Below are positions 1-3,200 of a DNA stretch of 5,596 bases, piece after piece. Position 1 is the first letter of the stretch. Each line of letters starts with the position of its first letter. Source of the stretch: Giardia intestinalis (lineage: Eukaryota). The translations under genes were made by a program, and so were the position numbers. The notes beneath the pieces are model-generated. The model ran no database searches and was not told the origin of the DNA. It worked only from the letters and a program-made list of their open reading frames with translations. The stretch is taken from NCBI GenBank assembly GCA_000002435.2, contig AACB03000026.1; one strand, 5' to 3'.

Positions 1-290
1 GCCACAGAGATGCCCGCTATGGCGCCTGTGCTGAGGCCGCTCTTGTGACGCTTCCGCCGGTACTGTCGCCATCTTTCATGAGATAGCAGAGGACGGAACC
101 TTTATTGTTGGGCGGAGGGGCGCAGTTTAAGCAGTCCTTGACACCGGTAATATCACCGTTGCTGTTTTCGCAAGATGTGCAGGCGCCTTCTAATGCGGTC
201 TTGTAGTATCCTGTGGCACACGTCGTGCAGGTGTTTGCAGTATTGGCGGCTGAGCATGTCTTGCAAGTAGGATCGCACGAGGACAGGTTC
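1..290 (-). pseudogene. Out-of-frame 3' continuation of the VSP-like coding region. It is either frame-disrupted (pseudogene) or affected by indel errors. It includes the conserved pre-TM/TM start and continues past the window start.
   Basis: The reverse complement of about 62..290, read in the frame offset from the called ORF, gives [83 protein letters not shown], which is classic VSP sequence. A third frame over 1..60 gives [20 protein letters not shown], the conserved VSP membrane-anchor start. The called ORF frame instead ends in the non-VSP-like …[30 protein letters not shown]. Confidence 0.6.
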
Positions 291-3200
291 CAGCACCGTC
301 CGGACCAAGACTATTGGTGCATGTCTGGCATTTTCCTTTGTTATCAGTTAGTGCACATACCTGCTTGCCAGGCTGTCTCGTTGTTTCATAGCACCCGCCC
401 TCCTGGATGAAGTATCCGGCGGCGCAGACCGTGCAAGCACCGTTAGCGGCAGTGGTGCAGAACCGAGTCCTGGCCGCATTGCTTGTGCAGACGCCATTGA
501 GCGGCACGTTGCTCCCCTTGCACTTCGAGCAGTACTTGGTACCTCCAATTGTTAGGCCGCACGTCTCGCACTCCGGGCCCTCCACGCATTGCTCCACGCA
601 CTGGCCGCCCTCATTAAGCTTGGTCTCGTCGGCGTACCTCAGCATCTTCCCGGCGGGGCAGGCCGTGCACTTGGAAGCGCCGGCCCCGCTGCACTCCGCA
701 CAGGAGGGGTCGCAGGGCGCGCACGTTTGCCCGGATAGATACGTTCCGGCCGGACAAGACCCCAAGCAAGCGTTCTTCTCTGGAGTGAGGAAGTAGTTAC
801 TTTGGCACTTTGTGCACTTCTGCTTGTCCTCCGAGCACACCTCGCAGTTGGGGAGATTGCAGCCAGCAGGCCGCGACCTCGTCGCACGTGTTCCGGCCCT
901 CGTTCTTCTGGGTCCCGTCGGGCACTCGGCGTAGCAGCCGCCCTTGTAGAGGTAGTGCGCGTTCGTACAGGCCGTGCACGTCCCTGCCTTATCGTTTGTA
1001 CCGACCGTGCACATGCCCGCGTCCGTCTTCGCCTTGCACTCCCCATTCACCGGGACCTTGTCCCCTGTGCACTTGGAGCAGAAGGTCTGGCCCCCGATTT
1101 CCACGTTGCAGCTGTCGGCGGCGCAGTTTGTCGCGCCGGGGTTTGCGGCGGCGCACGGCGTTGGGCCAGCAGGCGCGACCTCGTCGCACGTGTTCCGGCC
1201 CTCGTTCTTCTGGGTCCCGTCGGGGCACTCGGCGTAGCAGCCGCCCTTGTAGAGGTAGTGCGCGTTCGTACAGGCCGTGCACGTCCCTGCCTTATCGTTT
1301 GTACCGACCGTGCACATGCCCGCGTCCGTCTTCGCCTTGCACTCCCCATTCACCGGGACCTTGTCCCCTGTGCACTTGGAGCAGAAGGTCTGGCCCCCGA
1401 TTTCCACGTTGCAGCTGTCGGCGGCGCAGTTTGTCGCGCCGGGGTTTGCGGCGGCGCACGGCGTTGGGCCAGCAGGCGCGACCTCGTCGCACGTGTTCCG
1501 GCCCTCGTTCTTCTGGGTCCCGTCGGGGCACTCGGCGTAGCAGCCGCCCTTGTAGAGGTAGTGCGCGTTCGTACAGGCCGTGCACGTCCCTGCCTTATCG
1601 TTTGTACCGACCGTGCACATGCCCGCGTCCGTCTTCGCCTTGCACTCCCCATTCACCGGGACCTTGTCCCCTGTGCACTTGGAGCAGAAGGTCTGGCCCC
1701 CGATTTCCACGTTGCAGCTGTCGGCGGCGCAGTTTGTCGCGCCGGGGTTTGCGGCGGCGCACGGCGTTGGGCCAGCAGGCGCGACCTCGTCGCACGTGTT
1801 CCGGCCCTCGTTCTTCTGGGTCCCGTCGGGGCACTCGGCGTAGCAGCCGCCCTTGTAGAGGTAGTGCGCGTTCGTACAGGCCGTGCACGTCCCTGCCTTA
1901 TCGTTTGTACCGACCGTGCACATGCCCGCGTCCGTCTTCGCCTTGCACTCCCCATTCACCGGGACCTTGTCCCCTGTGCACTTGGAGCAGAAGGTCTGGC
2001 CCCCGATTTCCACGTTGCAGCTGTCGGCGGCGCAGTTTGTCGCGCCGGGGTTTGCGGCGGCGCACGGCGTTGGGCCAGCAGGCGCGACCTCGTCGCACGT
2101 GTTCCGGCCCTCGTTCTTCTGGGTCCCGTCGGGGCACTCGGCGTAGCAGCCGCCCTTGTAGAGGTAGTGCGCGTTCGTACAGGCCGTGCACGTCCCTGCC
2201 TTATCGTTTGTACCGACCGTGCACATGCCCGCGTCCGTCTTCGCCTTGCACTCCCCATTCACCGGGACCTTGTCCCCTGTGCACTTGGAGCAGAAGGTCT
2301 GGCCCCCGATTTCCACGTTGCAGCTGTCGGCGGCGCAGTTTGTCGCGCCGGGGTTTGCGGCGGCGCACGGCGTTGGGCCAGCAGGCGCGACCTCGTCGCA
2401 CGTGTTCCGGCCCTCGTTCTTCTGGGTCCCGTCGGGGCACTCGGCGTAGCAGCCGCCCTTGTAGAGGTAGTGCGCGTTCGTACAGGCCGTGCACGTCCCT
2501 GCCTTATCGTTTGTACCGACCGTGCACATGCCCGCGTCCGTCTTCGCCTTGCACTCCCCATTCACCGGGACCTTGTCCCCTGTGCACTTGGAGCAGAAGG
2601 TCTGGCCCCCGATTTCCACGTTGCAGCTGTCGGCGGCGCAGTTTGTCGCGCCGGGGTTTGCGGCGGCGCACGGCGTTGGGCCAGCAGGCGCGACCTCGTC
2701 GCACGTGTTCCGGCCCTCGTTCTTCTGGGTCCCGTCGGGGCACTCGGCGTAGCAGCCGCCCTTGTAGAGGTAGTGCGCGTTCGTACAGGCCGTGCACGTC
2801 CCTGCCTTATCGTTTGTACCGACCGTGCACATGCCCGCGTCCGTCTTCGCCTTGCACTCCCCATTCACCGGGACCTTGTCCCCTGTGCACTTGGAGCAGA
2901 AGGTCTGGCCCCCGATTTCCACGTTGCAGCTGTCGGCGGCGCAGTTTGTCGCGCCGGGGTTTGCGGCGGCGCACGGCGTTGGGCCAGCAGGCGCGACCTC
3001 GTCGCACGTGTTCCGGCCCTCGTTCTTCTGGGTCCCGTCGGGGCACTCGGCGTAGCAGCCGCCCTTGTAGAGGTAGTGCGCGTTCGTACAGGCCGTGCAC
3101 GTCCCTGCCTTATCGTTTGTACCGACCGTGCACATGCCCGCGTCCGTCTTCGCCTTGCACTCCCCATTCACCGGGACCTTGTCCCCTGTGCACTTGGAGC

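Follow-up and report, generated by a model that had tools for sequence, protein, structure and literature searches.

The minus strand of a 5,596-nucleotide stretch of Giardia intestinalis contig AACB03000026.1 (assembly GCA_000002435.2; hereafter the window, that is, the whole stretch of DNA that was analyzed) carries a gene from the VSP (variant-specific surface protein) family whose 3' end is spread over three reading frames. In our view, this gene is very probably a known, intact VSP of about 1145 amino acids (aa) with eight repeats, whose frame breaks come from single-base errors of sequencing or assembly, and not a biological pseudogene. The breaks exist, each of them amounts to one base, and their repair gives an uninterrupted frame that is colinear with intact VSPs. 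The neighboring open reading frame (ORF), part of a retroelement remnant, bears the same kind of private insertions and deletions (indels) when compared with an older WB protein. On this basis, we infer that the indels are technical in origin and that the assembly was derived from long reads.

As encoded, the VSP ORF opens with an ATG at 3364–3366 and closes with a stop codon at 190–192; between the two, it comprises a signal-peptide-like N-terminus, eight repeats of 101 aa, a Cys-rich unique region, and a 30-aa out-of-frame tail. The frames of its 3' end, read by translating the reverse complement of window positions 1–420 in three frames, are arranged as follows.

190–3366, minus strand: VSP ORF as encoded, 1058 aa (from the ORF list and Pfam PF03302).

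280–283, minus strand: junction J1, where one base is lost (TGTCC^TCGTGC) by comparison with the homologous DNA of P15.

48–279, minus strand: authentic VSP coding sequence in the second frame (SCDPTCKTC...DGDSTGGSV), untranslated as encoded.

43–47, minus strand: junction J2, where one A is lost (GTCACAAG) by comparison with the homologous DNA of P15.

1–42, minus strand: first part of the 38-aa C-terminus that VSPs conserve (membrane anchor), in the third frame and truncated by the window edge.

After ...DGAGTCP, the frame of the ORF departs from VSP-like sequence and goes on for 30 non-VSP residues until its stop. VSP sequence continues in the second frame, which beyond its VSP part reads RAASAQAP and stops at 17–19, and then in the third, which opens as RRKRH ahead of the anchor residues and stays open to the window start. 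The anchor start at 1–42 falls on the nearly invariant columns K279 to V292 in an alignment with VSP homologues; the 38-aa C-terminus to which it belongs appears as conserved in the C-terminal alignment of Additional file 4 of Adam et al. (2010; BMC Genomics 11:424, PMC2996952). This translation reproduced all three protein strings quoted in an earlier note on this DNA, which had described a VSP tail that is present but out of frame twice. The note had the called ORF ending at 190 in non-VSP-like sequence, VSP sequence in an alternate frame over about 62–290 (found here from 279 down to 48), and an anchor start in a third frame over 1–60 (found from 42 down to 1), and the two single-nucleotide breaks that it situated near 265–285 and 40–50 can now be placed at 280–283 and 43–47, with one base lost at each.

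The VSP signal of the three frames is not due to chance, which it far exceeds. Searched against the Pfam VSP profile (PF03302), the 1058-aa ORF gives E = 4.1e-100 (335.9 bits, for a cut-off of 31.4), the frame-corrected C-terminal region E = 2.7e-89, and the 87-aa piece of the second frame, taken alone, E = 7.8e-24 over profile positions 289–362 of 397. As encoded, the gene has no in-frame anchor, the anchor start lying two frameshifts away from the ORF, and it gains one only with one base added at 280–283 and one at 43–47.

The comparison with P15 indicates what the original sequence may have been at both junctions. At J1, the P15 homologues read TGC CCC TCG TG(C/T), that is, C-P-S-C. At J2, the P15 DNA reads AGC ACC AAC AAG AGC, and judging from it, an original GTC AAC AAG (V-N-K, with an A lost from CAAC), which is also the reading of WB VSP P0005, seems at least as likely as GTC ACA AAG (V-T-K), the two being indistinguishable from the window alone. 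The V-T-K form is the one to which the reading of this site in the earlier note corresponds. Scans of metagenomes with patterns that permitted either form of J1 or of J2 returned no match.

Upstream of these junctions, two further lesions are found in the last unit of the repeat array.

862–3285, minus strand: eight units of 303 bp (101 aa) in tandem, of which units 1–7 are 100% identical in DNA.

920–922, minus strand: first lesion of unit 8, C3 versus C4 in units 1–7 (GAGTGCCC-GACGG), a -1 frameshift.

871–872, minus strand: second lesion of unit 8, GG versus a single G in units 1–7 and in a P15 homologue (L001) (GGTCGCGgCCTG), a +1 frameshift.

Unit 8 departs from units 1–7 solely by these two single-base indels, the C-run being CCCC in seven copies and CCC in one. 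The second lesion brings the frame back 51 nt after the first, a compensated frameshift that leaves the ORF open, and between them the pair rewrites 17 residues and deletes a Cys that is conserved in homologues.

Two side observations concern the array. Two long antisense ORFs run over it on the plus strand (802–3396, 864 aa, and 810–3353, 847 aa); they are almost certainly repeat artefacts and not genes, because three of the six frames of the GC-rich 303-bp unit are open. In addition, the Pfam scorpion toxin family BmKX (PF09132) matches once per repeat unit (protein positions 65–94 and their equivalents; summed E = 4e-125), a hit that is also precomputed on homologous Giardia VSPs and that looks like a resemblance in Cys spacing, with no homology; along with the hits to Furin-like_2 and Ribosomal_L5e, it was set aside as an artefact of Cys spacing or of the repeats.

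Once the four bases are corrected, the gene takes the following form.

1–3366, minus strand: VSP coding region in full, with four single bases corrected; a single frame of 1122 codons, still open at the window start.

3362–3368, minus strand: initiator-type start context CAATGTT (...GGCCCAATGTTCGAT...), which is the initiator (Inr) type listed for vsp16.

The corrected frame meets no stop in 1122 codons and contains eight identical 101-aa units; colinear with intact VSPs, it is the intact, very large VSP that the earlier note had foreseen if the breaks were repaired. A further 23 or so codons, for the rest of the transmembrane (TM) helix and CRGKA, are expected beyond the window start, which would bring the predicted full length to about 1145 aa and 115.6 kDa; the stop codon and the polyadenylation signal would likewise fall outside the window. 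Cysteines make up 133 of the 1122 aa (11.9%), CXXC motifs number 30 in the eight-unit form with a modelled tail, the GGCY motif is present in each repeat unit as well as in the unique region, and the invariant Cys columns of the alignment with homologues are all kept. The PyAATGTT initiator of most expressed-type vsps is present as CCCAATGTTCG at 3362–3368. The N-terminus would be signal-peptide-like; its first 80 aa are identical to those of an annotated WB VSP (P0122), and it includes a hydrophobic stretch common to the P15 VSPs. The gene is therefore a VSP by its Pfam profile, its Cys and CXXC content, its GGCY motifs, and its initiator, with the in-frame anchor present only after repair.

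The annotated WB VSP with which the N-terminus is shared is a 197-aa protein of chromosome 5, identical to the window gene over its first 80 residues (window positions 3127–3366) and consisting, beyond residue 80, of a single diverged repeat-like module and an anchor. This sharing suggests that VSPs have recently exchanged or duplicated their 5' ends.

The homologues of the gene all encode in one frame what the window spreads over three. The protein collection was searched with a query in which the three frames were joined with one base added per junction (the 291-aa C-terminal region), and the top matches were Giardia VSPs, with identities of 83%, 80%, and 84% for proteins of P15 (assemblage E) and of 73–76% for WB proteins; the 83% identity, to an intact P15 VSP, extends over 97% of the length of the region. 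Across J1 and J2 alike, the reconstruction aligns with intact VSPs of P15 and WB and shows no frame anomaly, and past the window edge the homologues continue as V.VVGGLVGFLCWWF.CRGKA. The partial P15 protein P0004 (contig ACVC01000339) shares its N-terminus (MFDKLIF.SLALQ...) and its 101-aa repeat architecture with the window gene and is 84% identical to it in the unique region, yet counts two repeat units instead of eight. P15 P0001 and P0002, with identities of 83% and 80% to the corrected 291-aa C-terminal region, both terminate in the canonical anchor followed by CRGKA. Unlike the window gene, these three P15 VSPs are single-frame. With DNA that is ~81–85% identical to that of the window gene, they are either orthologue-like or paralogous copies from another assemblage.

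From a catalogue of 303 WB vsp genes compiled from a Sanger assembly (Adam et al. 2010), a name can be given to the gene. The sole vsp with a 303-nt repeat in Additional file 1 of that work is vsp16 (GL50803_112867), entered on chromosome 4 as "C" (complete), with Inr CAATGTT, 741 aa, 75.1 kDa, 88 Cys, and 22 CXXC. Given four units and the canonical 23-aa tail, the corrected window gene comes to 741 aa, 88 Cys, 22 CXXC, and 75.05–75.09 kDa; matched by six table descriptors, the 303-nt repeat and CAATGTT among them, it is evidently vsp16. Since the match extends to the 88 Cys, the unit-8 indel pair must be absent from vsp16 too. The two differ in that the window gene carries four frame-breaking single-base indels, whereas vsp16 is listed as complete, and in that vsp16 is listed with 3 repeat copies, its length implying 4, versus eight in the window. 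The latter difference fits the warning in the same work that assembly may have condensed repeat copy numbers. Another candidate, the head-to-head pair 111933/111936 of 741 aa each, with a pseudo-reverse transcriptase (RT) between its members, was rejected on account of its TAATGTT Inr, its 75.4 kDa, its 28 CXXC, and its lack of a tandem repeat. Nothing usable on GL50803_112867 came up in searchable literature text.

The retroelement remnant next to the VSP bears lesions of the same kind.

3790–4895, plus strand: 5'-truncated reverse transcriptase/endonuclease remnant of a non-LTR (long terminal repeat) retroelement, found by homology search and divergent from the VSP start.

Its homology hits are named Reverse transcriptase/endonuclease, from Giardia ATCC 50803. 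The remnant is split over three frames, with private extra bases at ~4183 and ~4565. An old WB RefSeq protein of 294 aa, XP_001709725.1, matches it at 294 of 294 residues in the segments 4009–4182, 4184–4564, and 4566–4892, a full match that needs one base skipped at ~4183 and one at ~4565, and an independent DH assemblage-A2 contig (AHGT01000150) is likewise without one base at each of these sites. These comparisons assign the window to Giardia duodenalis assemblage A, to isolate WB or a line nearly identical to it. The private single-base indels of the window therefore extend beyond the VSP. Considered as the orthologous locus, the DH contig was rejected, being a paralogous retroelement copy of 89% identity with no VSP, and it was used for the two indel sites only.

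Overall, six private single-base indels are found in ~4.9 kb, four of which (a pair in repeat unit 8 and a pair in the retroelement remnant) were absent from the earlier note. Two unrelated features are affected alike, and no substitution was detected, the 294 residues of the retroelement ORF and the VSP descriptors being identical to those of the older protein and of the catalogue, respectively. All six can be read as run-length changes, namely from C4 to C3, from G to GG, from C3 to C2, from AA to A (or from AAA to AA), from C to CC, and from G to GG. Such an indel-only pattern favors error, since real divergence would bring substitutions, and it has traits of consensus indel errors of a long-read-type assembly, namely single-base events without substitutions, at run-length positions, in unrelated adjacent features. 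That six indels arose independently as real mutations within 5.6 kb of a clonal laboratory line, with no substitutions alongside, is implausible. The converse possibility, that errors lie on the Sanger side and happen to restore two long ORFs, was discarded as implausible as well.

We thus propose that the two 3' breaks, the two unit-8 indels, and the two retroelement indels would all be consensus errors, more precisely run-length miscalls of the long-read type, with the paired -1/+1 change in unit 8 possibly produced by misalignment of the consensus where the repeat array ends. In biological terms, the gene would in that case encode a membrane-anchored, Cys-rich surface antigen ending in a TM helix and CRGKA just past the window start. 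Errors of this kind are documented for Giardia: in the WB reassembly from PacBio reads, homopolymer errors truncated full-length genes by frameshift, a correction required at least 10 Illumina reads with 50% support or more, and the 33 leftover contigs shorter than 33 kb showed an enrichment of gene families and repeats (Xu et al. 2020; Sci Data 7:38, PMC7000408). The window gene resembles these full-length genes truncated by single-base run-length errors, a likeness in pattern and not a demonstrated provenance; gene-family-rich regions and small leftover contigs were the hardest to correct by short reads in that reassembly.

Several points nonetheless weigh against an origin in error. The unit-8 indels compensate each other and leave the ORF open, which might reflect selection acting on a real allele, and the C3 of this unit is not a systematic error, because each of the other seven units has its C4 run read correctly. 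On the side of the references, XP_001709725.1 is assumed to have been a continuous ORF in the old assembly, as opposed to a join made by an annotator. As for vsp16, it is identified by table descriptors and not by sequence, its entry gives 3 repeat copies, yet 741 aa needs 4, and the protein collection yielded no intact 741-aa GL50803_112867 protein, though it contains other old WB RefSeq VSPs (XP_0017...).

The first two of these points can be turned into arguments for real indels, that is, for a recently inactivated VSP held by the sequenced line, or by one of the four alleles of this tetraploid organism, and serving as a pseudogene or recombination reservoir. In such a scenario, an eight-repeat giant vsp16 would just have been disabled at its 3' end, with a compensated frameshift in its last repeat, beside a dead retroelement; translation would end at 190–192 without TM anchor or CRGKA, so that no product would be displayed at the surface. 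The frame breaks are indeed present in the sequence as given, the compensation within unit 8 looks as if the frame had been under selection, the C4 run read correctly in seven identical units makes a systematic miscall of the eighth untenable, VSP pseudogenes are common in WB, where 208 pseudo-VSPs are annotated, and allelic variation is higher around VSPs (Xu et al. 2020). We nevertheless regard this scenario as unlikely. Over 1122 corrected codons, the ancestral frame shows no stop, no substitution, and no other decay, its Cys columns being retained. Nor do independent records, which bear on this indirectly, confirm the lesions: the matching gene is complete in the Sanger-based catalogue, and the old WB RefSeq protein and the DH contig are without the extra bases of the remnant, so that private single-base indels also occur in an unrelated neighbor that is otherwise identical at 294 of 294 residues. 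Like the window gene as encoded, the annotated pseudo-VSPs of WB (the 208 of Xu et al. 2020 and the start-less vsps of Adam et al. 2010) cannot make an anchored protein. However, these typically are 5'-defective, lacking a signal peptide or a start codon (Xu et al. 2020), and sit in arrays, whereas the window gene has an intact Inr, start codon, and signal-like N-terminus, and its decay consists of single-base indels only. The earlier note had left the choice between a pseudogene or reservoir copy and indel errors open; with four more private indels, no substitutions or stops, and a complete catalogue entry, its second option gains the support and its first loses it.

That the ORF is functional as encoded, as a secreted, anchorless, Cys-rich protein of 1058 aa with a novel 30-aa C-terminal tail, appears highly improbable. 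Long and open, with an intact start context and a Pfam VSP match, it could pass for such a protein, but its tail is without VSP character and coincides with VSP coding sequence that is perfectly conserved in a different frame, the third frame further downstream still encodes the conserved anchor, and the frameshifted stretch of unit 8 costs a conserved Cys. Programmed recoding, by which ribosomal frameshifting or transcriptional slippage would restore the anchor on expression, can be practically dismissed: its sole support is the nature of the two breaks as +1/-1 events at short runs, it requires two separate events plus the compensated pair, inspection of the runs at J1 and J2 revealed neither a slippery heptamer nor a long homopolymer, homologues need no more than a single frame for the same protein, and we know of no such mechanism for VSPs.

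Since vsp16 and the probable origin of its frameshifts have both been described before, the present case is nothing new in kind. Its practical consequence lies in annotation: gene callers will call the locus a 1058-aa anchorless protein or a pseudogene, when the evidence points to an intact, catalogued VSP, and it should not be counted as either without read-level confirmation. More generally, VSP repertoires and pseudo-VSP counts drawn from long-read Giardia assemblies can be skewed by residual single-base indels, most likely in repeat-rich regions where short reads map poorly. If the breaks were real, the gene would be one more recently disabled member of a family with hundreds of known pseudogenes, and would offer a snapshot of a VSP turning into a pseudogene or a reservoir copy.

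With regard to the right part of the window, six-frame pieces of 3497–5571 gave no Pfam match, the retroelement having been identified by homology search instead, and 4896–5596 showed no Pfam match and no recognizable feature; the alignment with the DH retroelement contig reaches 5187 only. A similar neighborhood of a VSP and an RT is seen in a P15 contig (L002) and has been reported for WB VSP pairs.

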